Shown: positions 17,448 to 64,000, numbered from the stretch's first letter. The stretch: DNA of 64,000 nt from Candidatus Omnitrophota bacterium (GCA_016214265.1 JACROU010000034.1:5878-69877), one strand, 5' to 3'. Numbers and translations are program-made. Notes: generated by a model from the letters alone, not told the origin.

Positions 17448-18406
17448 ATAGTTACCAATCCTTGTTTCTTGCGGAAGTACATTCGAAATAAAACAGCCAC
17501 TAAGTTCAACAAAAACGTCAGTGAAATCAAGACCAGCGTAGTTCCATACTGAATCGGAAGTGTCTTTTCTGCGTCAACCGACTGCGTGGCCATGATGTAG
17601 ATGTGATATGAAAGATCCATAAATTGATCGAAGGGATTGACCATCGGGATAAAACCAAACAGATTCACAACCGGCAAATGCGGCAAAAAATAGGCGACAC
17701 CCGTAAACAGAATCGGCGCTGTCTCGCCTGCCCCGCGGCTCACCGCCAAAATCGCACCCGTTAAAATGCCGCCGCGCGCCTGAGGGATCACCACCCGCCA
17801 AATCGTCTGCCACTTCGTCGCCCCAAGCGCTAGTGAAGCCGCGCGATGACTTTGGGGAACGCTAATCAACGCTTCTTCCGTTGAAACAATAATCACGGGC
17901 AGCACCAGTATCGCCAGCGTCGCCGCCGCCCAAAGCATGCAAGGCTGGCCGAACAGAAGACCGGTTTTGAGCACTTGATCCAGATTCCGGCCAACAAAAA
18001 GAACAAAAAATCCGAGACCGAAAAGCCCAAAAACAATTGATGGAACTCCGGCCAGATTGTTAACCGCGGCTCGGATTAGGCGAAAAACAATTCCATCTCC
18101 GGCATACTCCACCAAATAAATCGCAGCGGCCACACCAAGCGGCAGCGCCATTACCACCATCAACACTGTTTTAGCAATAGCCCCAAAAATGCATGGGAAA
18201 ATTCCGCCTTGAGTCATGCCATCGGTGGGCGCCAGTAATAGAAATGACCCTGTAACGACCCCCGCACCATTTTTTACGATAATCCACAGAATCAAAAAGA
18301 TCGCTATCAGCGGAACGACAGCAAAAATACGCACCAGTCCGTTCATGAAGTTTTCGGAAAGGTTGTCGTGTTTTACGGTGAGATTGGAAACGATGGATTC
18401 TCTCAT
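17444..18406 (-). CDS. pstA: phosphate ABC transporter permease PstA
   Basis: 320 aa polytopic membrane protein with ABC permease EAA-like loop; operon position. Confidence 0.8.
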
Positions 18407-34789: not shown

Positions 34790-35387
34790 CTGACTTCACC
34801 TTCTTCTTTGTTGAGATCCCCAAATGAAATGCCACTCTTTCTTTAAGCTCTTCAAGATCAAAAGGCTTTCCAACATAATCATTTGCACCCAAATCTAAAA
34901 CTCTCTTTTTAACCTCCGGCGCCAACAGAGCACTCATAGCAATAATTTTCGTCCCGCTAAATTCTGAATGTGCTCTCACGAATTCCAAAACGTGAAAACC
35001 GTCAAGTCCAGGCATCATCAGATCAAGGATAACGAGATGAGGACGAAATTCATGAATTTGCCAGCCTGCATGGAAACCATCCCTCGTTTCTTCAATCAAT
35101 ATATCTGAAAATTCTTCCTCCAAATTCCATCGAATCATGTGGGAAAATTCTTCCTCATCATCGACAATCAGCATCCTCGGTTTTTCTTGATCCGCAAACT
35201 CTGCAGGAACAGATATTCGTAATGTTTTAAGAAATACGATGAGGTCTTTCACTTCGACCCGATGATGGCCTCCTGCGGTCAATGACGCTTGCAATTTCCC
35301 TTCCTTAATCCAACGGAATACGCTGCCTGGAGATACGTGGCAGAATTTCGCAACTTCAAAGGTTCCAAGATATCTCTCCATTTCCAT
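34764..35387 (-). CDS. response regulator with N-terminal excisionase/MerR-like HTH and C-terminal receiver (reversed domain order)
   Basis: 207 aa; N-terminal YLGTFEVAKFCHVSPGSVFRWIKEGKL (HTH_17-like) then MLIVDDEEE...ILDLMMPGLDG receiver. Confidence 0.6.
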   Translation of the reverse strand: MEMERYLGTFEVAKFCHVSPGSVFRWIKEGKLQASLTAGGHHRVEVKDLIVFLKTLRISVPAEFADQEKPRMLIVDDEEEFSHMIRWNLEEEFSDILIEETRDGFHAGWQIHEFRPHLVILDLMMPGLDGFHVLEFVRAHSEFSGTKIIAMSALLAPEVKKRVLDLGANDYVGKPFDLEELKERVAFHLGISTKKKVKSDDIKRPKP

Positions 35388-35879: not shown

Positions 35880-36269
35880 TTATAGTGAAGTTGGAAGTGG
35901 CCCCAGTACTTTTTCAAGCGCCAGTTGGATATCAACGAGATCAACCGGCTTATAAAGACACGAAACGGCCCCTTCTTTTAAAACGCGGCTCTCGAAAATT
36001 TTTTCTGGATCAGGGAGACTGGAAAACATGATAACTTTCTGAGAAGGACGAATTTGTTTGATCTTTGCTAAAGCTTCATGACCTGACATAACAGGCATAT
36101 GCGTGTCCATTAAAACCACATCATATTCCTTTATCTCAATCTTTTTGACCGCTTCCAGGCCGTTCTCGACGGATTCCAGTTCAAACCCCAATGGCTCAAG
36201 AAGAAAAGCATACATATGCAACAAGCCCTCTTCGTCATCAACAACCAGTATCGTTTTGTGAAATTTCAT
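35880..36269 (-). CDS. single-domain CheY-like response regulator
   Basis: 129 aa; ILVVDDEEG...DVVLMDTHMPVMSG...KPV. Confidence 0.75.
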   Translation of the reverse strand: MKFHKTILVVDDEEGLLHMYAFLLEPLGFELESVENGLEAVKKIEIKEYDVVLMDTHMPVMSGHEALAKIKQIRPSQKVIMFSSLPDPEKIFESRVLKEGAVSCLYKPVDLVDIQLALEKVLGPLPTSL

Positions 36270-38545
36270 ATTGCCACAATTGGCAAAAGCACCTGAAAAA
36301 CAGTACCTTTTCCAACCTCGCTCTGAACATCAATTCTGCCGCCATGCCGCTCGATAATTTCGTGCACGAGTGAAAGCCCAAGCCCCGTTCCTTTTCCAAC
36401 TTCTTTTGTCGTAAAAAATGGGTTGAAGATTTCAGGCAAAACAGCTGGGGGAATTCCCGCTCCGTTATCCTCAACATCTATTGCAATCCAATTATTTCCC
36501 TGAAATAAAACTTTTCTGGTCGAAACGATAACTTTACCACCCTGCGGCATCGCATCAATCGCATTGTTACACAAATTAATCATAACCTGCTGAATTTGAT
36601 TTTGATTCGCCACGATCTTTGGAATCGTCTCGTCCAATCTTTTTTCGATTAGCACATTCGTCACTCTTCCCTGAGGAAAAATCAACGTAAGCGCCCCGTC
36701 AATTGCTTGATTTAGATTAATTTCATCTTTTCCGGTTTTTTCTACTCTTGAAAATGTGAGGAGGCTCTGCACAAGCGTCTTGCACCTGAGCGCTTCCCGT
36801 TCAATTGACTTCAAGGGCATTTCCAGGGGGTCTTTTGGCTGCATCCGCTTGACCAATCCTTGAGAAAATCCCAAAATGATTCCCAGAGGATTATTAATTT
36901 CATGGGCAACACCGGCAGCAAGCTGTCCAACAGCAGACATTTTTTCTGATTGCAACAACATATTTTCCAGCTTCTGTTTTTCAGTAACGTCTCGCAAAAC
37001 AGCAGTAAAAATCAATTTACCTTCCACGATAGTCTTGGAAATAGTTATTTCACAAGGAAATTCTTCTCCACTTTTCCTAAGACCAAATAGCGCCCCGTGA
37101 TGCTCACCTATCATTCGAAAAGAAACTTCGCCCTCACCAAATTGCTTTACATGCAGACGGTGTTTCTCTCGAAACCGCTCCGGCATAAGCATCTCAAGCG
37201 GCTGTCCAAGCACTTCTTCATTTTTATATCGAAAAATTCTTTCTGCTTGGTTATTAAAAAGTATAATTTTCTGATTCTCATCAACGGAAATAATCGCATC
37301 ACTGGCCGAGTCTAAAATATTCTGTAAGCGTGACCGTGATGAGGAGAGTTGCCCTACATAATCCTGAACTTTCTCTGTCATATTATTAAAGGCATGCCCC
37401 AGATCTTCGACTTCATCCTTCGACTCAACATTCACCCTTTTTGAAAAATTCCCATGGCCGATTTCTTGAGCAGTCTCAGTTAGTTCACGCAATGGGCGGG
37501 TGATTCTCCTTGCAAATACCATTCCAATGAAAGCAACAAAGATCGACACAAGTATGGAGAAACCCGCCAATTGATAGGCCAAGTTTTTGACTGATGCAAA
37601 CGCTTCACGCGATCTCACAAAAACAAAAACGCTCCAACCAGTTCCCTTAAACTCCCGGAACCCCTGAGAGCCGCAATAGCCAATAAGCCATTTCTCACCC
37701 TTGAGATCCCTTTCAATCGCAAAACCCGATTTTCCTTGCAAAGCTAAATCAATCGATTTCATCCCCAGGGAATGAAGATTGTATTTAAACAGATATTCGG
37801 GATCACTCATAGTTCCCGTTCCAGCAATTAGTTTTCCTTCGCGATCTGTTAATACCGCGTAGGAGGACGCCCCCTCTCCGGAAATCCGCACATCGTTCGC
37901 AATATCAAAAATCTCACTCCAGTTTAAATGAAATGACAACAAACCAATAATTTTATCGGGGTCTGCATGATTGAAAATGGGGAATACAATTTCCAATGTA
38001 TCCGCTTCAAGGGGTTTGAAATATTTGAAACTATAATTAATTGTGTTCTTTTGCTTTAATGCGTTCTGAAACGAAACCTTATCCTCCGCTTCCCAGCCGA
38101 TAAATTCCGGCAAACTTGAAGCAATCACTTTTCCATGGACATCATAACAAAGGATCGCACCAAAAATTCCGTGTGTTGTTGCAATATTTTCAAGGGCTTT
38201 AGAAATAGCACCGTGCGGATCATTTTCAAGGACGGCCTGCATAAGATCCGATCTGCTCCATGTTTCGGCTAATTTATTGACGATAAAAATCAGCCGGTCG
38301 ATTTCATCCATCGTGTGATACGACAAATCAGCCAATTTTTTCCCAATCGAGATTTTCAAAACGGATCCCGATTTATAAAAAGAAAGTACAGTACCGCACA
38401 ATGAAGTGGATAGTATGCTAATGACTAGAATCAGAATGAATTTTTGAGCCAGACGCAGTCGAATCGAGCTAAGAATAGAGCTTACCCTGCGTCCGAAAGG
38501 ATAATTATTCAAGCTCATATCCTTCTTCGCCGGGCAATTTGCCAT
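36266..38545 (-). CDS. sensor histidine kinase with periplasmic Cache-like sensor, HAMP, PAS, HisKA, HATPase_c
   Basis: 759 aa; TM - ~280 aa extracytoplasmic domain - TM - HAMP - PAS - HEINNPL H-box - GTGLGLSLVHEI G-box. Confidence 0.8.
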   Translation of the reverse strand: MANCPAKKDMSLNNYPFGRRVSSILSSIRLRLAQKFILILVISILSTSLCGTVLSFYKSGSVLKISIGKKLADLSYHTMDEIDRLIFIVNKLAETWSRSDLMQAVLENDPHGAISKALENIATTHGIFGAILCYDVHGKVIASSLPEFIGWEAEDKVSFQNALKQKNTINYSFKYFKPLEADTLEIVFPIFNHADPDKIIGLLSFHLNWSEIFDIANDVRISGEGASSYAVLTDREGKLIAGTGTMSDPEYLFKYNLHSLGMKSIDLALQGKSGFAIERDLKGEKWLIGYCGSQGFREFKGTGWSVFVFVRSREAFASVKNLAYQLAGFSILVSIFVAFIGMVFARRITRPLRELTETAQEIGHGNFSKRVNVESKDEVEDLGHAFNNMTEKVQDYVGQLSSSRSRLQNILDSASDAIISVDENQKIILFNNQAERIFRYKNEEVLGQPLEMLMPERFREKHRLHVKQFGEGEVSFRMIGEHHGALFGLRKSGEEFPCEITISKTIVEGKLIFTAVLRDVTEKQKLENMLLQSEKMSAVGQLAAGVAHEINNPLGIILGFSQGLVKRMQPKDPLEMPLKSIEREALRCKTLVQSLLTFSRVEKTGKDEINLNQAIDGALTLIFPQGRVTNVLIEKRLDETIPKIVANQNQIQQVMINLCNNAIDAMPQGGKVIVSTRKVLFQGNNWIAIDVEDNGAGIPPAVLPEIFNPFFTTKEVGKGTGLGLSLVHEIIERHGGRIDVQSEVGKGTVFQVLLPIVAI

Positions 38546-38981
38546 TAATTTTGAGTAATTTGATCGGCTTTGATTTATCCCAAGCTCCGGCTTCTATATA
38601 GCCGATCGCGTTGGGAAAACGCGCTACGTATGAGATCACAGAGTCGTTAGATTGCAGCTCAATAGTTCTAAAGAGAACCGGTGTTCCTGGAATCAAAAAT
38701 GTTTCCGCTGGGCCGGCATCTAATACAATTCGATAAAACCTATGCCGCAAGCCGGCTCCTGCGGTTAAGTTAATGGCTAAAATTTTCTGGCCGGTGGACC
38801 ATCTATCCTTTTGACCTCGATAGATCCGGGCCAATTCATTTCTTCCAATTTCATTTGAATTATTATTTTTATGCACAATGACCGCGATGGGATTTTTCAG
38901 CTCAGCATCACTGGCAAACAAAATTGAAAATGGAAATAGAGCAATGAGGGCAATTGATAAAATAACTTTTTGATATCTCAT
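38505..38981 (-). CDS. small periplasmic PBP-like (PstS-fold half-domain) protein, probable partner of adjacent sensor kinase
   Basis: 158 aa, signal peptide; ...IAVIVHKNN...IYRGQKDRWSTGQKI... resembles PBP-like phosphate-binding fold. Tentative. Confidence 0.35.
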   Translation of the reverse strand: MRYQKVILSIALIALFPFSILFASDAELKNPIAVIVHKNNNSNEIGRNELARIYRGQKDRWSTGQKILAINLTAGAGLRHRFYRIVLDAGPAETFLIPGTPVLFRTIELQSNDSVISYVARFPNAIGYIEAGAWDKSKPIKLLKINGKLPGEEGYELE

Positions 38982-38996: not shown

Positions 38997-40403
38997 TTAG
39001 AAAGCGGCGGTCACTGATGCCACAAAACCGTCGTCATTTCCATTTTCAAGTGGTTCATTTTTCATTCTGTTCCATTGATATTCTAATTTGAGGGCCCACG
39101 TTGCAACGGGGCGATAGTTTAAGCCGATAGTCCAGCGTTCCTCATTATTGGTTCCCGAATAAAAGAGCGGATCTGAATCATCATCGATTCGCGCATTGTC
39201 ATACTGAAACACCAAAACAAAGGTTGGATCTGAAAATCCCCTTCCGAGAAAAGTTTCATTTAAGGAATTAAACCAAAACTTATAAGCGCCCTGAACATAA
39301 AATCCTCGCAAAGTTTCAGGAACTGGAAGGGTGGTTCCCGATTGAAACCCTCCTTCTTGAAGATCAAAAAGAGCATATTCGCCCTTGACCTCAAAGGGTC
39401 CTTTTTTCAACTTTGCATCGAGATCAAAACCATTGACCTTATGGCTTGATGTACTGTATTTCCCAAAATAACCACTGGCTCCCAACTCGGCCCAGGAAAA
39501 AGGATTCAACCCCAAACGTCCCACGAAGGCTTTGTTATTATTGTTATCCACACCGTAAGCCCCTCGCGCTTGTCTAAGCCCGGCCGTATCGGTAATTCCT
39601 GTATCCGTCAAACCATTAATAAAATAAAGCTGATAATCCAGACTGAAATCTTTAAACCATCCTCCCAGATGATCACCCAAAAACATACCGCCCGTGGAAC
39701 CTGCCCCCGCTTCCGACCACGTGGCCGGAATAACCCGCGATTCGACAATGGGACGATCAGTTAAATACTGGAAAGGCTGGAAATGTTCCAAATTGTATTT
39801 TCCGAAAGGAACAAGAACCACACCGGCTCGTGGTTTAATCAGATCGTGAACATAATATTCCAACCATGCCTGTTCTACTTCCACCTGCCCCGCTCTTACT
39901 CCGGACGTTTCCGCGGTTCTCTCAAACTCTATTTCTCCAAAAATACTGAGTCGATCTGACATTGTTGCTTTTGCCAGCAGTTCTATATTCCTGGCGTCAA
40001 AACGTGAACGTTCACCATCCAGATGTTTATAATCCAGTGTGTTATAAAGATCGAAATCCACCGCGTTCTTCATTTTCTCTTCGACGGCATCCTGACGTTG
40101 TATTAAATAACCCAACTCTTCACCTGTTTTTGTTGCTTCTACCAACTCTTTGCTATTCCCAGCAATATCTTTTGAGCTCTTTTGCTCCTCAAAATATTTA
40201 ATTTTGGTGCTCATGTCCTGAATCTCACTTCGCATTGCTACCATTTCTTTTTCCTGGTCCGCCATTTTTGCTTCCATTTTTTGGACCAGGTCTTTCAAAG
40301 CAGATTCGTCCGAAGCCTGAAGTTGTCCAAAGCTAAAAAACACCCCTCCCACGATCAAAAATATAAAGATGCTTGTTCTATTAATAAATCTGACTTTTTG
40401 CAT
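38997..40403 (-). CDS. outer-membrane porin-like beta-barrel with N-terminal coiled coil (paralog 3)
   Basis: 468 aa; signal peptide, coiled coil (LKDLVQKMEAKMADQEKEMVAMRSEIQDMSTKIKYFEE), beta-barrel, C-terminal ...TAAF. Confidence 0.5.
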   Translation of the reverse strand: MQKVRFINRTSIFIFLIVGGVFFSFGQLQASDESALKDLVQKMEAKMADQEKEMVAMRSEIQDMSTKIKYFEEQKSSKDIAGNSKELVEATKTGEELGYLIQRQDAVEEKMKNAVDFDLYNTLDYKHLDGERSRFDARNIELLAKATMSDRLSIFGEIEFERTAETSGVRAGQVEVEQAWLEYYVHDLIKPRAGVVLVPFGKYNLEHFQPFQYLTDRPIVESRVIPATWSEAGAGSTGGMFLGDHLGGWFKDFSLDYQLYFINGLTDTGITDTAGLRQARGAYGVDNNNNKAFVGRLGLNPFSWAELGASGYFGKYSTSSHKVNGFDLDAKLKKGPFEVKGEYALFDLQEGGFQSGTTLPVPETLRGFYVQGAYKFWFNSLNETFLGRGFSDPTFVLVFQYDNARIDDDSDPLFYSGTNNEERWTIGLNYRPVATWALKLEYQWNRMKNEPLENGNDDGFVASVTAAF

Positions 40404-49308: not shown

Positions 49309-50859
49309 TCATTCCCGTTTTTTCCGGGATGACATTAAAATTTCTCTCGTCTGAATTTTGTAACCTTCCACGCCGTCCTGCAGATACGTAAAATCTTTGT
49401 AGGTTCCATCCACGAATTGCTCTTTTTCAAGTCCGCGCAGTTTTCCTTCCACCGCAACGATTGACTGAAAAAGATAAATGAAACGCGCCACTTCACGCAC
49501 AGTACGTTCAGGAATCACAATCGTGTAATTAAGAATGCCGCGTTCCGTCGCGTCACGCATAACACCTTCCATCGAAGCCTGTTGCACTTTCGATAGCGGC
49601 AGTCCCTCCATCGATTCAATTTCTTTTCCTTTAATAGCGCTTCCGTGAGGAATTACTGAATCGCGGCCGGCCGCTGTTTTTTGAGTGCCCACAAAAAGCA
49701 CCAGATCCCGCATCGCACCGGTTCCCTCTGCCGCGCCGTTCCAAATCGAATGCATTTTTTCGGAACCGACAATCGAAACAAAATCCATCCCTTGACCGAA
49801 TTTCTGAACCGACTCAGAATAAAGCTGCTGCGCTAAATCGCCCACTTGTTTTAAAAGCGGATCGTAAACAATCATAATCAAGAAAGTTTTTTTCTTTTTT
49901 ACTTCCGCGATTACCTGATTCATCGCCGACTGAAACACCACGTTTTTTTCGTTATCGGCCGGATTATCAAGCATATCAGAAATCGCGTCTTTAATTCCGC
50001 TCATCGCATCCATCACCCGCGAGCGCGGACTTTCGCCTAACTTCTCATTCGCGGTCACCGCTAACGCAAGAAGTCCGACGGGTGAAAAAGCCGAGAACCG
50101 CCCTCCCGTTCCATCGGGCACCGAAAGCATCGCGTAAAACGGATCGATTTTATTCAGCTGAAATAAAAGACTTTTTTCATTCAGACCCGTGGTCGCTACA
50201 AAAAATTGCCCCACCCCGCTTTTTAGATTCAACCGCTTTTGAAGAAAATCGCGGACAATCAAAAACGCGGCCAAAGTTTCCTGAGTACTTCCCGATTTCG
50301 AAATGACATTAAATTTTGTTTTTTGCAAAAGTCCGCGCTTATCCAAGCCTTCGAGTAAATCTGAAACTTTTTCCGGACTAAAATCATTTCCGATGAAATG
50401 AATTTCAGGTGCCCCGCCGCGAGCCTCACGCGGAAGAAAATTATGATGCGTGCTAAGTGTAGACCAGACAATGGCTTGCGTCGTTAAGTCTGAACCACCA
50501 ATTCCCAGATTAACCCACACTTCACACTTTTGGGAGCGCACTTTTTCAGCAACACAAATTACATCCTGAATATTTTTATTTTCGATCACGAGCTTGCCGT
50601 CTTTATCCAGCGGATCTTTGAGGGAAACAGATTCTGGAATTTCTAAATCAATCCACGGAAGTGTCCAGCCCCGAAGAACTTTTTTCAAATGCAAACGGCC
50701 TTTGCCATTAGAGGCGTTGGCAAACTCTTCGCGGAACTTAGTTTGTATTTGTTTTACCTTTCCGCTCAATTCCGTCTTGTCTTGAGGTGTAAACCGGGAA
50801 TTAGATTGGATTTTTTCTGATGAGAGATTTTCTTGTTTGATGTGAACTGAGGTACTCAA
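49309..50859 (-). CDS. pgi: glucose-6-phosphate isomerase family (SIS domains), divergent
   Basis: 516 aa; LGIGGSDL and ISKSGSTQETL motifs resembling PGI signatures; canonical GGRYS not seen, so assignment is tentative. Confidence 0.55.
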   Translation of the reverse strand: MSTSVHIKQENLSSEKIQSNSRFTPQDKTELSGKVKQIQTKFREEFANASNGKGRLHLKKVLRGWTLPWIDLEIPESVSLKDPLDKDGKLVIENKNIQDVICVAEKVRSQKCEVWVNLGIGGSDLTTQAIVWSTLSTHHNFLPREARGGAPEIHFIGNDFSPEKVSDLLEGLDKRGLLQKTKFNVISKSGSTQETLAAFLIVRDFLQKRLNLKSGVGQFFVATTGLNEKSLLFQLNKIDPFYAMLSVPDGTGGRFSAFSPVGLLALAVTANEKLGESPRSRVMDAMSGIKDAISDMLDNPADNEKNVVFQSAMNQVIAEVKKKKTFLIMIVYDPLLKQVGDLAQQLYSESVQKFGQGMDFVSIVGSEKMHSIWNGAAEGTGAMRDLVLFVGTQKTAAGRDSVIPHGSAIKGKEIESMEGLPLSKVQQASMEGVMRDATERGILNYTIVIPERTVREVARFIYLFQSIVAVEGKLRGLEKEQFVDGTYKDFTYLQDGVEGYKIQTREILMSSRKKRE

Positions 50860-50930: not shown

Positions 50931-52655
50931 TTAAAACTCGGTATTGAGAACGAAATGAATCCGGAAGGTGTCGCCATCGCTGGGGCCATCACCAATTGCC
51001 TCGGCAAGATAAATACGCGCGGTAAAATGATTAAACAAATCCACAAGAACACCACCACCAATACCCATCAGCCATTTTTCATCCTGTTCGCCAGGCAACC
51101 CCTTATTTAGCCAAGACTTGCCGATATCCGTAAATCCGACCAATTGAAATTGCTCGCGCGGTTTTTGTCCAAACAATTCAAAATTTTTGGGAATCAAGTA
51201 CGGTGGAAACCGCAATTCAAACGATCCGGTATATCCTTTATCCCCCAAATAATCTCCTTCCGGATAGCCACGCACTGTCTCCATGCCACCTTCACGAAAC
51301 TGCTCAGAAGAAACCAGCCGGTCCGGCGTAATTTGCATTGCTCCGCGCACCACAACAATCGAATCAAACAAAAAGCGGTTAAAACGCGCGCCGCCAAGAC
51401 TCCATGAGAAAAATTGCCCGCCGGTATCTGGTCGGCTGGCTTTATCATCTTTTTTTTCCAAGGCTCCCAAAAAACTGCTAAATCCCTGGCTGAATTGATT
51501 GGTCAACACTGTCCGGCCCCACTTATCGAATTGAGAAATATTCGGACCGAATCGCAGAACCCGAAGTTCATCATCCGAAACCTCATGCGCCAAAATCCGG
51601 CTTTTGATTGTTGAAATATCAAAACCGCTAGTGAAGTCCCCTTCCCATTTCGGAGTCATAAATAATGGAAACGTAAACGATGGTCCAAATGTTGTTGAGC
51701 GGCCTCGAATCTCAAATTGTTTGACCTTACCGATCAACGACAAGTTGGAATTGCTGAAGTTCATATTGAACGTGTCGCCGCGGGCATCAAGAGGAAATGA
51801 ATACGAAGCCGATTCACCGATAAAAGCATGATATTCTGAAATCACGAAACGGCTTATCATCCGGTCATTGAGCGTTAAAAAATCATTATGCGTCGCGATT
51901 ATATTCTGGCGCGTTGTTCCAGATGACTTAGTTCCAAGATTGTCCCACTGGTGGCCAGCGTGCATCGGAAACTTGTCTTTCACCGTGATAACAACATCGG
52001 TGGCTTCTTTTTCTTTGGCCGGCGCCAAAACAGCACGTGCGGTAATATCAGGATTTCGATTGATGCGGACCAAACTGTTTTCCAAATGCTGGACTTTAAA
52101 TACCTGTCCATGTTTTAAGTGAACCAAGCGCTTAACACCATACTTGGTAAAATGTTTTTCTCCCTGAATTTTAATATCGGCAACCTTACCTTCAAGAATT
52201 CTGATCTCGACTTTGCCTTCCATAATTTTTTGCGGAGGCAGATATGCCTGACTGGTCACGTATCCCTTTGAGCGGTACAAAGCAGTGATTTCTTTGGAAC
52301 ATTGGGCCAGTTCGGGAAGAAGCACTTTCCGATTCTCAAATTTGGCAGTGATTTTTTTGATTTCATTTGAAGGAATAACCGTGTTACCGGAAAAACCAAT
52401 TTCTTTAATAAAAACTTCCTTTTTGGGAAACTCCTGCCCCTCTTGAATAGCGATGGGTTCTTCGATTTCTGGACGTTTTTGGACTTCGGGTTTCTTGAGT
52501 TCACTGGATTTCGCAAATTCGCGGGATTGAGATCCCATCAATTCAACCTGCCGGCTCACATTGGAACCTGGAGGCGGCTGCTGCTGAGCAAAAGCAGTCG
52601 GAAGATTAACCAGCAAACTGCATATGAATAAGAAGATAAAATAATTAGGCTTCAC
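50931..52655 (-). CDS. ShlB/FhaC/HecB-type two-partner-secretion outer-membrane transporter (TpsB) with POTRA domains
   Basis: 574 aa; signal peptide, POTRA-like (VEIRILEGKVADIKIQGEKHF), C-terminal beta-barrel ending ...NTEF. Confidence 0.65.
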   Translation of the reverse strand: MKPNYFIFLFICSLLVNLPTAFAQQQPPPGSNVSRQVELMGSQSREFAKSSELKKPEVQKRPEIEEPIAIQEGQEFPKKEVFIKEIGFSGNTVIPSNEIKKITAKFENRKVLLPELAQCSKEITALYRSKGYVTSQAYLPPQKIMEGKVEIRILEGKVADIKIQGEKHFTKYGVKRLVHLKHGQVFKVQHLENSLVRINRNPDITARAVLAPAKEKEATDVVITVKDKFPMHAGHQWDNLGTKSSGTTRQNIIATHNDFLTLNDRMISRFVISEYHAFIGESASYSFPLDARGDTFNMNFSNSNLSLIGKVKQFEIRGRSTTFGPSFTFPLFMTPKWEGDFTSGFDISTIKSRILAHEVSDDELRVLRFGPNISQFDKWGRTVLTNQFSQGFSSFLGALEKKDDKASRPDTGGQFFSWSLGGARFNRFLFDSIVVVRGAMQITPDRLVSSEQFREGGMETVRGYPEGDYLGDKGYTGSFELRFPPYLIPKNFELFGQKPREQFQLVGFTDIGKSWLNKGLPGEQDEKWLMGIGGGVLVDLFNHFTARIYLAEAIGDGPSDGDTFRIHFVLNTEF

Positions 52656-52735: not shown

Positions 52736-55204
52736 CTATTTCTTCTTACCCACTTTTTTCCTGTGAATATAGTCGTAATTAGGAAGTTCCAAATAGAACA
52801 TCTGGAAGTTTTCGTCCACGTAAAACATCCTTCGTTCCAACGAATCGTTGATAAGCTCCGACGCGGCCACCGCAATTTGCGCTTGAATCGTTTCCGCCAC
52901 AATAAGCAAGTTTACTCCATTCCAGTACACGGCACCGTTGTAAGTTCCGAATAAAGTCAATGTGTTAACCGGCCATACCGTGCCTGTCATGTTTACAGAC
53001 ACACCTCCTGCCGCACCCGGAGCAATGACGGTCAATGTGCCTCCGGTGACATTCGCTTCCACCGCATTCAATGCGGTGCCAATTGTGCCCGCCAGTCCCG
53101 ATGCGGTTAATGTGGAATTAGCGCTGGAGGTAAAATTCACCAGCGGACCGTTACCATCCAAAATCGATCCGCCGCCCGTTGTCGAAACAGTAAAACTGCC
53201 GCCCGTCGCCGTTATCGCTCCGGCAGTTATGTCACCGCCGGCCGTGAAATTAATATTGCCGGCTGCTGTTGACAGCGATGCCGCGCATCCATCGCATTCA
53301 TTCAACGCAATATTTCCAACTCCTGTTACCGTCGCTGTTATCGTATCAAAACATACCTCAATCGGACCCGGATTCCCGATACTGCCAGCCGCCGTAAAGT
53401 TTCCGATTCCGCCCGCCAAATCCACACCCAGATCAGTTCCGATTTCCTCAATTTTGCCCGCGGAATTAATCGTAACCGTATCGCCCGCAGCCGCCACATT
53501 GTCTACGTTCACATCGCCGCTTGTCGTTGTTGTAAGAATAACATTGCGTCCGACACCACCTGCCGTCACGGTAGTAAGATTCAGATCCCCGCCAACTGAT
53601 TCCAAAGTAATCGCTCCATTCACCGTGGTCGCGCTGGCCACACCCAATCCGCCGGAAGTATCCTTCACGTTGATCCCGCCCGTTCCCGTCACTTTGAACG
53701 TGGCGGAGTTCATGCTGAAATCCACTTCCAAAGTGCCCGCCTCACCGATACCATTGACCGATGTCAAATCTGCATCGGTGGCCACCAAATCAGCGGCCGC
53801 ATCCGCACCACTTTCCTCAATCGCTCCGGCCGAGTCGAGCGTAATCGTATCGCCGACAGCGCTCACCACATCCACCGACATATCACCGCCCGAGACCACA
53901 TTAACGGAGCCGGAAAATGTCGTCACGTTAGCCAGCGTAATCGCGTCGAATTCTTCAACATTGATGATCCCGGCCGCCGTCACATTGGCCGTCAAAGTAG
54001 TCACATTGGTTTCAAGGGCATCAACCGCAGTCCCAACACCGCCAAGAGAAGTAATCGTAAGGTTATTCGCCGTCACATTCGTAAGCGCCGCCGCGTCGCC
54101 CAGCACCGAACCATTTGTCGCGGTAAGCGTCGCATCATTCGGCGTATTCACCGCACCCGCAGCGCCAAATGTGACGTTCCCGTCCGTTGTCAGTGTGATT
54201 GAAGAATTTCCAGTGCCCGTAATTTCACCATCCACCTGAATCGCCCCGCCCGCCATCGGAGAGCGAATCGTCACGGGATCGCTGAACGAAATTGCGTTCA
54301 CGGTCACCAAACCGGTTCCATCCGCGCGGCCAATTATGATATTGCTGAATCCGTCAACCAACGCTGTGGGTATCGGGATTTGCATGGTTCCGGCCGCACC
54401 CGCGATGCCAATGCTGGTTCCAGCCGCCGCTGGTTGAAGTGTGATCGAACCTGTGCCGCTCACCGATCCCGCGCCACCCGAAAAACTGATTGAATCCGCG
54501 GTCAATGTCAGCGCATTCACACCCGCCGCGAGAATATTGTTAAACGTCATCGTGGAATTTCCGGAATTGAATTCCACGGAATCCGTAGGCGTTACCGGCC
54601 CGCTAAAAGTCATCGTACCAACGGTGGTTGTGTTGTAGGCTGGCGCGTAGGTGCCGGAAATCAGATTCAAACTTCCATTCACCACGACGGGACCGGCAGG
54701 CACATAAGTCTCACCGGCATTATTAATTCTGAGATTGTAGTAAGTCGGATTGTTTACTCGCGTATTCACGGAGGGGACGCTCCCTGAATATTCCACAGTG
54801 GATGTCTGGGGATCAAAGACACCATTGATCACCAACGGGGCCGCGTCAAAAATAACTTGTTTTGGACTCGTGGAGTCGCTCGTCGTCCCCTCACCTAATT
54901 GGCCGTACGCGTTATACCCCCACGCGTACACTGCCGCATCTCCCGTCGTCATGGCTATCGAATGGGCGCCGCCACCGGCGATCTTCGAAATATTTTGTAA
55001 AAATCCGGTGCCACCAACGCCCAACACTTCTATCGGTATCAAGGAATTGTTGGTTGTGCCGTCGCCTATCTGGCCGAAATTATTGATTCCCCAAGCGTAG
55101 ACACGCGAGCCATCACTTTTCAGCTCGACCGTGTGAACATACCCGGTCTTGATAAATGATATATTCTTCAGGAATCCCACACCGCCGACGCCCAGAAACC
55201 GTTA
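52736..55204 (-). CDS. C-terminal portion of giant repeat exoprotein (last blades of second RCC1 propeller + beta-helix-like repeats + basic C-terminus), separated from upstream ORF by a frameshift
   Basis: ORF frame continues upstream of its GTG to 55204 reading ...[25 protein letters not shown]..., matching earlier repeat [26 protein letters not shown] in the giant ORF. Confidence 0.6.
55143..55194. repeat. exact 52-bp direct repeat (copy 1) of 55748-55799 within RCC1 array
   Basis: ccggtcttgataaatgatatattcttcaggaatcccacaccgccgacgccca occurs identically at both positions, 605 bp apart. Confidence 0.9.
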
Positions 55205-58200
55205 TTGGAGAGGGCCACGCTGTGATAGCTGCCTGCATCGATTTGGGAAATATTCAGCAGAATTCCAAAGCCGCTAATGTCGACAACTTCTACTGGCACC
55301 GAGGAATCATTCATCGTTCCGTCACCCAACTGACCCGACGCGTTATCTCCCCACGCCAACACGGTTCCATCAGTCTTCAGAGCGACCGTATGATAAAACC
55401 CGGCAGCAACTTGAACTATGTCCTGCAGATTTCCAATTCCACCCATTCCCAAAACTTCGACCGGGACCAAGGCATCATTCATCGTGCCGTCACCTAACTG
55501 ACCTTTATTATTTCCTCCCCATGCGTAAACCTTCGGGCCTTCACCACTCTTCAGAGCCACCGTATGGAAAAGTCCCGTATCAATCTGAGAAATATTTTGC
55601 AAATAATCCACGCCGCCGACGCCCAATACCTCCACCGGCGTTGACGAATTGCCCGTCGCACCGTTATTGCCCAACTGGCCGTGATCATTGCTTCCCCACG
55701 CGTAAACGCGCGAGCCATCGCTTTTCAGCGCGACCGTGTGATCATATCCGGTCTTGATAAATGATATATTCTTCAGGAATCCCACACCGCCGACGCCCAA
55801 CACCTCGACCGGCACAGAAGAATTATTCGTCGTCCCATCACCCAACTGACCCTGCGCATTGTATCCCCACGCATAAACCAAACCATCCATCGTAAGTGCA
55901 ACAGTAAAATAACCACCGCCGGCAATCTGACTGATGTTACTGAGAGTCCCGACGGCCGTTGTGTTGAGATTCCATGTTCCGCTTCCTGCTTCAAGCCGAT
56001 GATTGAGCTCTACCGTCAGCTGACCTGACACGGTAACCTGATTTGCCAGGATTTTTGAAGTCACTTCCGCGGTCGCGCCGTCGCCGAAGGTGAGATGATT
56101 GAACGTCCAGTCAGTCGCACCGCCAAAATTGCCGGTGCCCGCGAGCGAAAATGTTCCGCCGATAAGATTAATCGTACCGTCACCCGTCACATCGCCGCCC
56201 TGAACTGCAATATTCTTTGTGCCAATCAATGATCCGGCTGTTACCTGCAAGTCTCCTGCCATCGTGAGCGCGTCCGTTGGCTCGAGCGTGCCTGATCCGG
56301 AGTACGTTAAATTATTGAAGTTTGATCCGCCGCTAGTGATCGTTTGCGCGGACGTACCATCAAAAGTTACGGTGCCGGATCCAGCCGTGAACGTGCCGGA
56401 ATTTGTCCAGTTGCCGGCTACCTTGATATTCTGGCCACCGCTAGCCAGATCACCGGCAGTAATTATCACATTGCCATTCACATCGAGGGCATCAATCAGC
56501 ACAGCGCTTCCAGCTGATTTGTTCACGGTGAAATTATTAAAACTCGTTCCACTCGAAGTAATATTTTGTATGCCAGCTCCATCGAATGTCACCGTTCCAG
56601 TGTTCGCGTTAAAGGTGGCGCCCGTATTCGTCCAGTTACCTCCGACATTAATTGAATTGGATCCGGCAACAAGAACCGAAGCGCTGGTCACCTCGCCGCC
56701 CAAGGTATGGAACGTGGAAGGATTTGATTGGTTATTGTATTCGGTCTGAATCCATTCGGCTGATCGGGCTGTCGAGGAGAAGCGAACTTCGTCGATTCTG
56801 CCAGCAACATAATAAGGGATATTGTTATAGGTATGCCCACCGATGCGTAAAGGATTCGACGAATCAGTCCAGACCGCCGTAGTGTCTGAAGCAACGTTCG
56901 CCGTGTTAACATAAATGGTCGTTGTGCCCGCCGATGTCACAACAACTGCGTTATACCATTGTCCCGAAGAGATAATTCCCCCGGCACTCACTATTTCATT
57001 GATCCCTGCCCTGCCCACGCCTACCCTGCCATCCCCGTAATAATATATGGCCCAATTCTGGTCATTATTGACCTGATTCACGAGCCCGCCGGCATCAGCC
57101 GCAGTCGCTGGCATCGTGTCGACATAAAACCATACGCTGATCGTACCGTCTGACGTAGTGAGGTTCCAGCTATTGCTGTCAGGAATACTGATATAATCGT
57201 TTATTCCGCCAAAGCTTCCCGCCCCATCAATCTGTCCTGCTGTCGCCGTCGGACCGAGTATCAATCCATTGTTTGCGTTAGCCGTCGAGTCAGTCGTGCT
57301 TAAAACCGTTCCGTCTGCCAGATGCCACACGCCGGCATAGTTCGAATCCCACACCGCCGACGCGTTCTGAGTATCCGCAGTAGCGCTCGCGCCGTAATCA
57401 AGGTAGAGCGTCGTATCCCGCACACTCGACAGATCCGCCTTCACCCAAGCGATGAGTTTGCCCGTCGTATCATCGTAATATTCGACTTGATACGGCATCA
57501 CGGCGCCAAGTGCATCCGTAAACTTGATCGTATAATTAGAACCGTTTTGCACTTTGCCGATGAGGCTTGCATCTGTGACGCTCACGAGAACCGGGAAGCC
57601 CGTCAAGTCTGCCGGAACTTTCGTGCGATCAATGATGATGGCGCGTCGGGATGAATAGCCACTCTGCCACTGAATATTTAGGTTTCCGCGAACATTGAAG
57701 GCATCCTGCAACGTATAAGTTCCCGACAAAATCGTAACGTTGTTGAAACTGGCGCCGCCGGAAGTAATTGTGTGACTGCCAACACCGTCAAACGTTGCTG
57801 TGCTCGTACCCGGTGTAAACGTTCCGCCTGAAATCGTGAAGTTGCCTCGATAATATTGCGTGCCGGAAGCAGCGGTAAGACTGCCGCCCGTCATCGTCAA
57901 GTCACCATTCAATGTCATGTCGAAAGTAGCCATGTCGAAATTGCTGGTCGAAATCGGCAGATCGCCGGTGAGAACCACATTTCCGGTCAGCGAAACATCG
58001 CTGGCAAAGTTGATGGTGCGACCCGCTCCGAGTCCGGTATTAATGTCGCCGGCCAAATTCACAATACCGACACCGTTCTGAACAAAATTTCCATCCAAAG
58101 TAATATCGCCCGCCGCCGAGGTTATGAAGAACCCGCCGTTGGTAACCGTCATGACATTGCTCGCACCGCCCGTCGCCGTCACGGAATTCGAAATATCAAT

Positions 58201-61200
58201 AGTTCCGGCGGCAATCAAAGTCACGTTACCCCCCGCAGTAAACGGCGCGTTAACGGTGATCGATCCTGCCTTCGAGTTCAAACTTAAATTTCGCGCGACC
58301 GTAAATGTGAAATCGCTTGCATTGATCCACAAACTATCGTTGGTCTCGATTGTCAAATCGCGGCCCGAATTAAAATCGTTATAGTCAAAATAAATACTTC
58401 CAGCACCGAAAAGCGTCGAATCGGCCTTAAGAACAATGTCGCCGCCGCCTGTCGTTGTGAAGTACGGAGAATAACCGTTCGTCCACCCCAAATCCAAATC
58501 CCCGGCCGTCAGGCTGATTCCGCCTGCACCGTCGGTATCCACATTGTCATCAAAACCGGCATAACCTGTAGCCGTCATCACAAAACTCGCCGCCGAGATC
58601 CGCCAATCGGCCCAGAAGTCCCGGGCGCTGGCAATGTTGATATCACCCAGCCGCACATTACCGCCGACAGTGTTAGCGAAATAAATATTTCCCGTGCCCG
58701 CGGTCAGAGTAAAGCCCTCCACGCCGGGATTCGTTCCGTCAATCGTGTTGTAGAAGTTGATATTAGCGCCAGGAGAAGCTCCAGAATTTGTGGAATCAAG
58801 AAGGAATCCGCTCGCGGCGAAAATTACCGGCCCGTAGAAATTCATTTGGCCAACGCTGTAAATATTCGCGTCCACTGAAAAAGTCCCCCCACTTGAGTTC
58901 AGGGATCCATTGATAACCAGATTAGAAGCGTTGGTGAAATAGTCGATACTGCCATCAACGGCATTGATACTTAAATTGCAATAATCGTTAGCGCCAAAAT
59001 CTTTGATGATAAAACTGCTCGCCGTCGCGTCGCCATCGCCAACGTAGTTCCAAGTTCCCTGAGTCGTGTCATTGCCCGAAGTCAGAGTAACGTTTTCATT
59101 TCCTTTTAATTGTATCGTGGCCGGATTGGTTAGCGTTCCCGTAACGGAAAAATTTTGACCATTAAGATCGAGAGTGCCGGCAGAGTTGGTAATGTTGTTA
59201 GAAATCACAAGCGCATCTTGAAGCTGCAGCGTGCCAGAACCCGAATGTGTCATATCGTAAAAACTCGATCCACCACTCGTAAGCATCTGAGTATTGACAC
59301 TATCAAAGGTAACCATACCCACGCCTGCCGTAAATGTACCCGTACTCAGCCAGTCGCCGGCGACATTCATATTCACCGAATGACCCGTGAGATTTCCGGT
59401 AATAGAAACATTATTGAAGGAAGTGACGTTCGCACCAAGAACAGAGCCAGCGCCGTTGAAAGTTACCGTGCGAGTACCCGGAATAAATGCTGCCGAATTC
59501 GTCCAATTACCACCAACAGTGATATCACTTACATTTGAATCAAGAGTTCCCGTCGTAATATCAATATGCCTCAACGCAGTGATTGCTCCTCCGAGAGTGA
59601 ATGTCGATGAGGGGTTATTGAACTTAAGATCATAATAAGTTGTACTTGTAACATTACTGGTAATTCCGGAATATTCAAAAAGCGATGTCTGACAATCGAA
59701 AGTGCCCAAGATGACAAAAGACGTAAGAGTTGAAATGACCCCGACAGGTGTCAGCTGCGGAGACATCAGAGTGCCATCTCCTAATTGCCCAAATGCGTTA
59801 TATCCCCACGTCCAGACTGTTCCGTCAGTTTTTAGCGCCACCGTGTGAGCGCTACCCGCTGCTATCCGGGTAACAACTCCCGTAGTCTGACTTTGAACTG
59901 GAACTGATGAATCCGTCGTCGTCACATCCCCTAATTGCCCATATCCGTTATATCCCCACGCCCACACCGTCCCATCGCTCTTTAACGCTACCGTATGATA
60001 ATCGCCCGCCGTTATCCGGCTAACACCCGTGATCTGACTTTGAACAGGAATCGATGAACTATTTGTCGTACCATCTCCTAATTCACCATATCCACCATAT
60101 CCCCAAGCCCAGACTGTCCCGTCCGTCTTTAACGCCACCGTGTGTATCGTATCAGCCGCAATCCCACTCACGACGCCTGTGATTTGACTTTGAACAGGAA
60201 CCGACGAATTATTTGTTGTCCCATTACCCAATTGACCATACCAATTCCCCCCCCATGCCCACACCGTTCCGTCATTCTTTAACGCCACCGTGTGAGAAGA
60301 GCCCGCCGCGATTTCGCTCATAATTCCCGATGTTTGACTTTGAACAGGAACCGATGAATCGGTTGTCGTGCCATCCCCCAATTGGCCGAACCTGTTAAGT
60401 CCCCACGCCCAGACTGTCCCGTCATTCTTTAACGCCACCGTATGATAATAACCCGCCGTGATTTCGCTCATGATTCCCGTTGTTTGACTTTGAACGGGTA
60501 CGGACGAATCCGTTGTCGTCCCATCGCCTAACTGACCATACACGTTATACCCCCAAGCCCACACCGTTCCATCCGTCTTCAACGCTACCGTATGAGAATT
60601 ACCCGCCGCTATCCGGGTGACAATTCCCGTAATTTGACTTTGAACGGGTATGGATGAATTTGTTGTCGTGCCGTCGCCTAATTGACCGTATGAATTAAGT
60701 CCCCACGCCCACACCGTTCCGTCCGTCTTCAACGCTACCGTGTGATAATCGCCCGCCGCGATTTGGGTAACCCCGGTAAAATAACTATTGCCGGCCCACG
60801 CAAGATTCCAGTGACTTGTTCCGGCCTGAAGAGTATGAGTTGCAGATATTTTAAGCTGTCCCGTCATCGTTATTTGGTTCGTTCCCGCTTTCGACGTAGT
60901 CCCGACATCTGATCCATCTCCAAATGTAAGATTGTTGAATGTCCAATCCGTCGCGCCGCCGAAATTACCCGTGCCGACAAGTACAAAATTTCCGCCGGTA
61001 AGATTGATCGCGCCGTCACCTGACACATTTCCACCATTGACGGTAATATCACCGGTTCCCGTTAACGTCTTCGTGGCCCACACGAATAACCCTTGATCTA
61101 CCGTCAGACTGCCGCTTGTCACCGAATAAAGCATATCCGAATCAACCAACGCGCCCTTGGCCGTATTCAAATTCGCAATCGCGATCGGACCCGCAGTTTC

Positions 61201-64000
61201 GTGACGCACAATCAGCGTGCTTCCATATATATCTAGTCCCGTCACACTCGCCGGATTGACAGGAGCGATCGTAACCGTGCTTCCTTTCACCGCATTCCCC
61301 GAGATATACACATCCACATTCCCGCCATTCAACAAATCCACACTGCTGAACGTGTAAGCCCCTCCGGTAGTCACTGCCTGCTCAACAATTAATCGCCCAT
61401 CCACCGCCAGTCGAATCGTCACGCCATCCCCAATCAGGCTCACCCCGAGATCGGTATAAACATTTCCTGATACCGCCGCACCGAAATACCAGTTCGTATT
61501 TCCTAATCCATCCACACTTCCCGTCTCCGCCGCATTGATTATGGTCGCGTTCGTATTGTGCGAATCCTGGACATTGAGATAAGCAATGGTGCGCGTGCCT
61601 TGCGGATCAACATTCCACTGCGTACCGGGCGCGCTCGAGCGGAGCGACAACAGCTGGCCCGCCGCACCTTGTAACGTCATCGTCCCCGTAATCGTCTGCG
61701 TCGAACCCGCCGCGAAGGTGAGTACATCCGCCGCCGCGACCGTCTTCGTTAAATTGTAAAATGTTGTGTCGCCGGAAATCGTCTGATTAGTTCCGTTCAA
61801 CACTACCGTTCCGGTTCCCGCTATAAATGTCGCAGCGTTTGTAAAATTTCCTGTGAGAGTTAATGTGCCGCTCGTCATCGAAAAAGTACCGGCGCTCAGA
61901 TTGAGATTGCCATTCACTGTCACATTATAAGTTGATTCATCAAAATTATTCGAAATCGGAACATAACCGGTAAGAGTCGTATTGCCAAGAACGGTAACGG
62001 GTCCACCAAAAGTGATCGTTCCGCCGCCGGTTGATGTGATGAGTCCGGCGATTTCAAGATCCGCCGCCACGGGCGCCGCCGCGCCTTTTTGGACAGAGAT
62101 ATTTCTGAGCGCCAGCAATTGATCGTTCGCACCGTCGGATTCAATAATCACGCTGTCAACAGCCGGTGCCGTCAGCGAAAAATTGGAGCCGGTCAAAGTA
62201 ATGTCCCGTCCCGCATCTACCTTGCCCGATACTCTCACCCGCACGCCGCCAACTCCGTCCAAATTCGTATCCGCAGTCAGAATAATATCTGAAACCGCAC
62301 CCGCCGCCTGAATCAAAGCAAGCACATCAATATCGTCGGTTGAAGTTATGGTTATTGTCGTTCCCGAAGTGATTGTCCCATTAATCACAACACTGCCCAT
62401 TCCTCCATTCAAAACAATGTTACCGGCCCCCACCGTGAGAGCCGCATTAATTGTCACCCCGGAACCGATCGTGAGCGTTCCGCCTGATCCCGGACTTGAA
62501 TTAATCACATCATTAACTGTGATCGTAGTGCCAGACACAACAGTCACATCACCACCATTCGTCGTAATTCCAACAACTCCGTCCACGGTTCCTATGGCAA
62601 CGGCATTAGCATCTGTGTAACTGATGGCATTGCCCGCGCCAGTCACATTGGCAGCAAAAGTCGCAACATTGTTGCCTGCGTCTGTGAGCGTCACCGCACC
62701 CACTGACTGGACATCCAGACTACTTACCGCAAGTGAAGCAGATTGCGTCACCGTTCCGCCTGTGCGCAGTGAAAGTGTACTGTACGTTGCGGGTGCTGTT
62801 ATCGCCGAAGAAATAGTGATACTTCCAGAGTTTGCCGTGGAACCAATTCGTAAAGTACCCGCTGTAATTTGATCGAGTTCGGTATCTGTAAGGCCAAGCT
62901 TACCCACCGTATTCGTTCCCAAATCAATCTGGCGCGAACTGGTATTTTGAACTAACGTCACAATTCCCGAACCCACATCCACCGAGCCGGAGAATGTCAT
63001 GTCATCTGCTGTAAACGTCAGCGAGCCAGCCGAGATCGTTGAAGAGGCTGTTACATTATTTGCATTGTCGATCGTAAAAATTCCAAGCCGCGTTGTTCCG
63101 CCCACTACCGCGGAAAATGTAATGTCTCCGGAAGTTCCGGATCTCAACGTCAGATTCTCCGTCCCCGCCACCGATCCATTCAATGTTCCCTGAAAACTGA
63201 TATTAGCTCCCCCCGCCGATCCGCCGCCGTTCGTCGTGTCCAAGAGAACACCCACGTCCAAAATCACGCTGTCACTAAACGTAATCGCATTTCCCGCAGT
63301 CACAATATCCGCCGCCAAATGCGCCGTCGCTCCGGAACCGTCTAAATATATGGAAGCGTTCCCCAAACCGGTGATCTGACCGTTCACCTGAATCGAACCT
63401 CCCAAAGCCGGCGAGCGAATCGTCACGGGATCTGTAAACGTCACGGCATTAACCGTAATTAATCCGGATCCGGCCACACGACCGATCGTGATACCGCTAA
63501 AGCCATCTCCGAGAGCTGCAATATCCGTCGACGATAACGCAAGCGTTCCTGCCCCTCCGGCAATTCCGATTGCGGCCGCATCAGATGCCGGCTGCAACGT
63601 AAGTGCCGCACTGCCTGTCACTGAATTAGCGCCACCCAGAAAATCAATTCCATTTGCGGAAAGTATTAAATTATTGACACCTGCAGAAAGTGTTCCCGCG
63701 AATATCAATGAGTTGCTTCCCGCATTCAAAGTAACCGGATTATTAATCGCAACAGTGCCATCAGCGCGGAAATTATCTGCCATAGTCCATGTTCCGCTGG
63801 CGCCATTGAAGGAAACATTATTGAAGTTGCTGCCGCCTGAAGTAATACTGTTTGTTCCCGCCGTCGTAAAGTTCACCGTTCCGCCGCTGAAAGCCCCTCC
63901 AACTTTTGTATCCCAATTGCCGCTGACAGTAATGGTGTTGGCTGCCATAGTGAATGTTCCGCGAATATCAATATCCCCAACATTCACATTTCCACCAGGT
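55168..64000 (-). CDS. giant repeat exoprotein (partial, N-terminus beyond window; >2,900 aa here): beta-helix-like GxxT/NxT repeats, seven-bladed RCC1 propeller, DUF2341-like + LamG/ConA-like module, second RCC1 propeller (interrupted)
   Basis: Long low-complexity G/T/S/N/A-rich passes typical of beta-helical adhesins; RCC1 blades [27 protein letters not shown] x7; LamG-like WFYVD...RIDEVRFS; no stop from 63987 to window edge. Confidence 0.7.
55748..55799. repeat. exact 52-bp direct repeat (copy 2)
   Basis: Identical to 55143-55194. Confidence 0.9.
56700..57660 (-). other. DUF2341-like + LamG/concanavalin-A-like lectin module inside giant protein
   Basis: ...[26 protein letters not shown]... 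followed by ...[11 protein letters not shown]...[15 protein letters not shown]...[22 protein letters not shown]... ; domain names from memory. Confidence 0.45.
59745..60790 (-). repeat. RCC1 propeller A: seven tandem ~150-bp blade repeats inside giant gene
   Basis: Seven consecutive ...[42 protein letters not shown]... units; visible as near-identical ~150-nt periodicity on plus strand. Confidence 0.6.

Follow-up and report, generated by a model that had tools for sequence, protein, structure and literature searches.

An Omnitrophota tpsA-type gene split by an apparent out-of-frame deletion within a blade of its second RCC1 propeller

The question raised by this locus is whether two neighboring open reading frames (ORFs) that meet within a run of RCC1 repeats are two genes or one and, if they are one, what has divided it. 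The locus lies in a 64,000-nucleotide (nt) stretch of DNA, referred to here as the window, from a metagenome-assembled genome (MAG) of a Candidatus Omnitrophota bacterium (GCA_016214265.1, JACROU010000034.1:5878-69877). It belongs to the two-partner secretion (TPS; type Vb) class, with the gene order tpsA-tpsB. The 5' part of a tpsA-like giant exoprotein gene occupies positions 55168-64000, with 2,939+ codons, an N terminus past the window edge, and a TGA stop at 55168-55170. The 3' part of the same gene follows out of frame at 52736-55201, where 821 codons are open, and tpsB is located at 50931-52655. These and all other features of the two genes described below are on the minus strand. We conclude with high confidence that the two ORFs are one disrupted gene. 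Its second RCC1 propeller is short by about 76 nt within a single blade, and we see an even chance that this reflects a real truncating deletion in the tpsA-type gene of the organism.

Two reading frames of one gene

The upstream ORF (55168-63987) comprises 2,939 codons and is open up to the window edge, its N terminus lying outside the window. The downstream ORF (52736-55180) has 814 codons and corresponds exactly to NCBI entry MBI4970896.1 (HZC17_03550) on a contig of 73,472 bp, which is annotated as a "hypothetical protein" with a GTG start at 55180. Extended upstream of this codon, it reaches a TAA at 55202-55204. The coordinates, the codon counts, the missing N terminus, and the upstream extension had been given by an earlier, sequence-only reading of the window and were all reproduced. 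Compared with the upstream frame, the downstream one is shifted by -1, and the two overlap in a short window (55168-55204) that runs from the downstream-frame stop TAA at 55202-55204 to the TGA that terminates the upstream ORF; its sequence is TAACGGTTTCTGGGCGTCGGCGGTGTGGGATTCCTGA. No stop codon interrupts the downstream frame over 821 codons, for which the chance is about 1e-17, whereas the other two frames contain 55 and 37 stops.

Modules are shared between the two halves. Pfam searches of the upstream ORF revealed two RCC1 propellers with DUF2341 and Laminin_G_3 (a ConA-like lectin domain) between them, and the start of the downstream ORF also matched RCC1. The segment past propeller 2 in the downstream ORF (...TYYNLRINN) aligned with the segment past propeller 1 in the upstream ORF (...TYYDLKFNN) with an E value of 2e-10. 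A 163-amino-acid (aa) module of the downstream ORF has a counterpart early in the upstream ORF, with 52% identity (E = 1e-32).

Relatives of the downstream region pointed in the same direction. An exhaustive phmmer search of 1.84 billion representative proteins, with the 702 aa of the downstream ORF that are not RCC1 as the query, returned 717 relatives, the best of which were single proteins of 2,400 to 7,200 aa. Such giant relatives were invisible to a word-indexed homologue search, in which the match length did not exceed about 1.74 times that of the query (1,414/821, 1,217/702, and 2,201/1,264 aa). An N-terminal TPS domain was recognized by Pfam in relatives P0252, P0253, P0255, P0257, and P0260. 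By BLAST, the TPS domain was present in 76 of 145 relatives of the downstream ORF and in 63 of the 95 that were at least 1,500 aa long, always N-terminal to the matched region. An N-terminal TPS domain was likewise carried by 51 of 97 homologues of the N-terminal 1,073 aa of the upstream ORF. At its other end, the disrupted gene encodes a conserved C-terminal end motif of the TpsA family, GGVSV..GTV.P.NTL....PG.V.(F/W)NGV (52904-53008), which is found 1 to 3 residues from the C terminus in six TPS-domain proteins (P0255, P0260, P0263, P0276, P0287, and P0288). The 814-aa ORF is accordingly the C-terminal portion of a TpsA. PDB and NCBIfam, searched with this region, yielded nothing useful.

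The downstream ORF runs about 55 aa past the end motif (52739-52903), in an extension that has no database match and whose last part is a lysine-rich tail. In this it is unlike the six TPS-domain relatives, which stop directly after the motif (...NGVxVP*).

An independent downstream gene was considered and rejected: the annotated GTG falls in the middle of a blade, an export signal is lacking, and the homologues of the 814-aa ORF are the C termini of TPS proteins. Shine-Dalgarno use is patchy in this genome, and the absence of such a motif before the GTG at 55180 is compatible with initiation there. The sequence-only reading had taken the two ORFs for one giant exoprotein gene, split by an out-of-frame deletion in the second RCC1 propeller; the paralogous modules and the single-protein relatives both agree with it.

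A truncated blade in propeller 2

Propeller 1 (59737-60780) consists of seven 150-nt blades and is intact. It gave seven RCC1 and seven RCC1_2 matches in Pfam, corresponding to seven consecutive repeats. Propeller 2 (54821-55932) has blade starts at 55932, 55764, 55590, 55416, 55248, 55159, and 54988, and the blade lengths in this order are 168, 174, 174, 168, 89, 171, and 168 nt. The upstream frame encodes blades 1 to 4 and the head of blade 5, and the downstream frame supplies the tail of this blade together with blades 6 and 7. Blade 5 (55160-55248) is therefore the one in which the frame changes, and its 89 nt compare with an expected 165 to 174 nt. About 76 nt are missing, that is, 25 codons plus 1 nt (3n+1).

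Correcting the frame did not repair the propeller. The frame-corrected sequence produced six Pfam RCC1 matches and a 30-aa stub, compared to seven matches in propeller 1. In an alignment of 30 RCC1 sequences, the near-invariant W, G, G, and P columns were absent between residues 264 and 283 of the frame-corrected sequence. A single-sequence AlphaFold2 model of propeller 2 had a predicted local distance difference test (pLDDT) score of only 32 and was replaced by a model based on the 30-sequence alignment. The latter had a pLDDT of 90.8 and template modeling (TM) scores of 0.75 to 0.83 to seven-bladed UVR8 and RCC1. The frame-corrected propeller 2 is predicted from this model to have an RCC1-like overall fold. 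Confidence dipped at the junction, and blade 5 had fewer strands than the other blades.

Because blade 5 is short by about 76 nt, a frame shift alone gives six complete blades and a stub, and the lesion is a deletion rather than a one-base error. This corrects the earlier expectation that shifting the frame would restore a complete second seven-bladed propeller, as blade 5 would still lack about 25 residues. The same reading had described the junction as an out-of-frame deletion between blades. The out-of-frame deletion stands, but its placement does not, since the break lies inside the 89-nt blade 5.

The junction and a possible route to it

At the junction, the upstream frame reads TTC TGG GCG T|CG, encoding F-W-A and then (W), which fits the blade motif (V/F)-W-A-W-G (VWAWG). 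In the downstream frame, the same bases read C TGG GCG TC, or (L)-G-V. The heptamer TGGGCGT (55188-55194) fits the blade consensus in both frames and is a putative breakpoint microhomology.

From these observations we infer a microhomology mechanism, the presence of the deletion in the DNA of the organism, and a fate for the products. The ancestral blade 5 would have been 55 aa long and would have contained two TGGGCGT heptamers 76 nt apart, one formed by its W-A-W codons and the other by the L-G-V codons of the linker between blades 5 and 6. Replication slippage between the heptamers is the most likely cause, and the loss of one repeat unit would yield exactly the present sequence. The restored gene would hold an extra 76 nt (...AACGGTTTCTGGGCGTGGGG...GTGTTGGGCGTCGGCGG...), giving one frame, and the approximately 76 missing nt would sit between ...AACGGTTTCTGGGCGT and TGGGCGTCGGCGG... 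in the sequence as it stands. After the deletion, translation would end eight out-of-frame codons later (WASAVWDS*), and the cell would export a C-terminally truncated TpsA ending in an incomplete propeller. The remaining 820 or so codons, which specify blades 6 and 7, beta-helix, and the C-terminal motif, would be an untranslated remnant that is nevertheless undecayed, as would be expected if the lesion arose very recently or exists as a variant within the population.

The 52-bp repeat and probable gene conversion

Two identical 52-bp sequences had been noted at 55143-55194 and 55748-55799, and both were confirmed. The first copy is located at the boundary of blades 5 and 6, and the second is located at the boundary of blades 1 and 2. 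The surrounding sequences (55064-55194 and 55669-55799) are 90% identical. This repeat is the only exact direct repeat of at least 30 nt in the window. The 131-nt alignment of the copies contains 13 mismatches, all of which lie past the 52-nt run (under random placement, P is about 0.0009); several of the nearest ones are synonymous. The tail of blade 5 is identical to that of blade 1, and blades 6 and 2 share 77% identity, compared to 50 to 69% for other pairs. This distribution of differences points to an old blade duplication followed by a recent gene-conversion patch, a feature separate from the deletion. The junction would then coincide with the edge of the repeat because the right breakpoint of the deletion falls in the conversion patch.

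The repeats had also been proposed as the substrate for slippage or recombination at the break. We rejected them as its direct cause, since the copies are 605 nt apart and it is this length, not 76 nt, that their recombination would excise; TGGGCGT fits the junction better. Adding the missing 76 nt to the 605-nt spacing gives 681 nt, or 227 codons, which equals four whole blades of 58, 58, 56, and 55 aa.

Two further pairs of short exact direct repeats, of 24 to 26 nt and 0.9 to 1.1 kb apart, occur elsewhere in the window at 17798/18718 and 34734/35831. The latter pair flanks a response-regulator gene (34764-35387).

Origin of the break

A deletion in the organism has to be weighed against a local assembly or scaffolding error, in which the genome would carry an intact single-ORF gene whose blade 5 has all of its 55 aa, the 76 nt having been lost across near-identical blades during short-read assembly or scaffolding. 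We regard such an error as a serious possibility that falls short of an even chance. A number of observations count against a lesion in the DNA of the organism. The source is a MAG that was probably assembled from short reads. The window has a single exact repeat of at least 30 nt, and the junction falls precisely on its left edge, an error-prone place for assemblies. Past the break, the frame stays open for 821 codons, and both the end motif and tpsB are undamaged. A lesion in the organism would thus have to be very recent, and an artefact would leave just this picture as well. In Illumina-only Omnitrophota assemblies, giant genes have been reported to be split by local errors (West-Roberts et al., bioRxiv 10.1101/2023.11.21.568195), and in that study two adjacent giant ORFs became one 74,983-aa gene once corrected. 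In addition, the 7-nt microhomology is a reconstruction built on an inferred ancestral blade 5 sequence, and searches for related loci in genome contigs and metagenome contigs, with the downstream ORF and TpsB as queries, recovered no relative. Repeats of this kind do disturb assembly, as indicated by P0061, a related Omnitrophota gene with TPS and RCC1 domains (locus L001), whose contig ends inside 189-nt blades that are 83 to 90% identical. Other points speak against an assembly error. The left side of the junction shares no k-mer of at least 21 nt, and a simple repeat collapse would not be expected to delete these 76 nt. The k-mers of a de Bruijn contig should normally all derive from reads, and a 7-nt overlap would be too short for a graph mis-join, so that an error would require chimeric reads or else a join made without support during scaffolding or gap closing. 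The larger k values at which common metagenome assemblers operate exceed the 52 nt of the repeat, and the MAG may derive from the MEGAHIT + IDBA-UD pipeline of PMC7906910. We saw no second disrupted gene: the 28 other ORFs of the window that were scanned looked intact, except for one short ORF with a partial domain match, and the contig is therefore free of a general indel problem.

Explanations in which the split itself is functional fare much worse. A programmed -1 ribosomal frameshift in the 33-nt overlap could restore the full-length protein, or the 814-aa ORF could be translated separately from the GTG at 55180; we give this very little credence. The downstream frame is indeed -1 and fully open, a single-tRNA slip at U-UUC (GGU UUC to G GUU U) is formally possible, and, with Shine-Dalgarno motifs used so unevenly, a missing one leaves separate initiation possible. 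However, the overlap contains no X XXY YYZ heptamer, and no stable RNA structure was predicted downstream of it (fold z = -0.64). Even a perfect frame shift would leave the propeller short of about 25 residues of blade 5, at the point where the AlphaFold2 confidence dips, and a programmed frameshift was rejected on these three grounds. A separately translated downstream ORF would start mid-blade without a signal peptide or a TPS domain and hence would not be exported, and relatives encode this region as the C terminus of one polypeptide. Recombinational on/off switching, with propeller blades serving as donor cassettes and gene conversion toggling the gene between intact and broken states, is also improbable to a high degree. 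It draws on the signs of recent intragenic conversion, namely, a 52-nt exact tract in a blade pair that otherwise differs at many synonymous sites, and on the elevated identity of blades 6 and 2. Against this, the junction contains no homopolymer or short tandem tract (the longest single-base run nearby is 3 nt), and neither inverted repeats nor a recombinase gene was found nearby. Slippage would not reverse a 76-nt loss, and restoration from a different blade would happen too rarely to serve as a switch. The suggestion of a phase-variable on/off switch found no support, there being no repeat tract at the junction and a loss of about 76 nt rather than 1 to 2 nt. A still broader proposal holds that TpsA propeller blades of Omnitrophota exchange sequence by frequent intragenic gene conversion, generating intact, chimeric, and truncated alleles and thereby adhesin variation or switching for attachment to host or prey. 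We consider it highly doubtful.

The tpsB partner and neighboring genes

The tpsB gene starts 80 nt past the tpsA stop, is preceded by a GGAGG Shine-Dalgarno sequence, and encodes an Omp85-type transporter with POTRA_2, POTRA, and ShlB/FhaC barrel domains. Its ORF matched the profiles of POTRA_2 (2.7e-21), POTRA (3.9e-11), and ShlB (3.8e-22) with near full coverage, and weak Omp85/BamA matches agree with its identity as a transporter. No promoter-like or terminator-like site was detected in the 80-nt gap between the two genes. Judging by their shared strand, the gap, and this site scan, tpsA and tpsB would be linked in one transcription unit. The label exoprotein is applied to the disrupted gene because a TpsB gene adjoins it. 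Its product, at more than 3,750 aa, is most likely a beta-helical exoprotein into which two RCC1 propellers and a DUF2341-LamG module have been inserted. The latter is encoded between the propellers at 56746-57528, where Pfam placed DUF2341 at 57349-57528 and the Laminin_G_3/ConA-like lectin domain at 56746-57207.

Just downstream of tpsB, a 516-aa ORF with a TTG start (49309-50859, minus strand) displayed a weak partial match to phosphoglucose isomerase (E = 1.2e-10; positions 99 to 308 of 486). A 425-codon ORF on the plus strand (52962-54239) runs antisense to the downstream tpsA fragment and has probably arisen by chance, the coding sequence here being G+C rich and repetitive. Elsewhere, the window is made up of ordinary housekeeping genes with complete domains, including a riboflavin operon, lgt, lspA, ppk, ppx, and two-component systems; the block that leads to tpsB reads ribBA-rluD-lgt-lspA-dksA-rSAM-pgi-tpsB. 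A 158-aa ORF (38505-38981, minus strand) matched only positions 91 to 197 of the 267-position PBP_like_2 profile and may be a truncated or divergent gene for a phosphate-binding protein. Its neighbors are a porin O/P-like ORF (38997-40403) on one side and a Cache-HAMP-PAS histidine kinase gene (36266-38545) on the other. Rfam and tRNA scans of the window returned tRNA-His only.

Consequences and comparison with known systems

If the deletion is real, the TpsA that is displayed or released would keep propeller 1 and the LamG module and would end in a stub of four and a third blades. Blades 6 and 7 would be missing from it, as would the conserved motif at the C terminus and about 700 aa of beta-helix. 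TpsA proteins are exported N terminus first, and N-terminal fragments that contain the TPS domain are secretion competent, as seen for FHA, HMW1, and ShlA. A truncated allele could therefore still be exported. For annotation, HZC17_03550 is to be read as the out-of-frame C terminus of the neighboring giant TpsA gene and not as an independent hypothetical protein. The break also matters for protein catalogues and giant-gene counts that make use of either ORF. The Omnitrophota phylum is thought to live on other cells, and a type Vb exoprotein with RCC1 and LamG modules would plausibly act as an attachment device, as far as its domain content suggests.

Its domain architecture is uncommon but falls within a known family, and it opens no long-standing question. 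RCC1 was present in none of 146 representative relatives of the C-terminal region, and P0061 (GCA_023819315.1), a partial Omnitrophota protein, was the only other example that we observed. The combination of RCC1 propellers and DUF2341-LamG within a TPS exoprotein appears to be rare, occurring at 55945-60780 in the window and at 10001-13289 in locus L001. A full-text literature search pairing "two-partner secretion" with "RCC1" gave no paper, among the matches listed, with either term in its title or abstract. The West-Roberts study discusses RCC1 for Oscillospiraceae and not for Omnitrophota.

The break itself is that of an ordinary broken gene or a short-read assembly error and not a new mechanism, as frame-disrupted type V secretion genes are already known. 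The genome of Fusobacterium nucleatum (PMC1924603) was described as having a "frameshift of AT family transporter" and a tpsB pseudogene. Like those type V lesions, the present one cuts a large, repeat-rich surface-protein gene by disrupting its frame; unlike them, it is a 76-nt deletion within a blade in a MAG and not a verified lesion of an isolate genome. The locus also resembles the giant genes reported for the same phylum (bioRxiv 10.1101/2023.11.21.568195), which encode very long surface proteins rich in repeats and beta-helix and are split by short-read assembly. Those proteins, however, are longer than 30,000 aa and contain SecA-like domains and numerous transmembrane regions, whereas the one described here, part of a TPS locus, has about 4,000 aa. 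Both propellers can be compared with RCC1, UVR8, the RCC1-like domains of HERC2, and bacterial RCC1-repeat proteins: propeller 1 has seven repeats, and the model of propeller 2 superposes on UVR8 and RCC1. In contrast to these proteins, the two propellers are embedded in a secreted beta-helical passenger, and propeller 2 lacks most of blade 5. The closest parallel is with FhaB/FhaC of Bordetella, HMW1A/B, ShlA/B, and CdiA/B, in which a giant beta-helical exoprotein gene likewise stands beside an Omp85-type TpsB with POTRA domains and a ShlB/FhaC barrel. Relatives of both gene halves carry the N-terminal TPS domain PF05860 that is typical of FhaB/FhaC-type systems, the N terminus of this gene itself lying off the window. 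The present passenger differs from them in holding two RCC1 propellers and a DUF2341-LamG module and in being encoded by a gene that is broken in this sequence.

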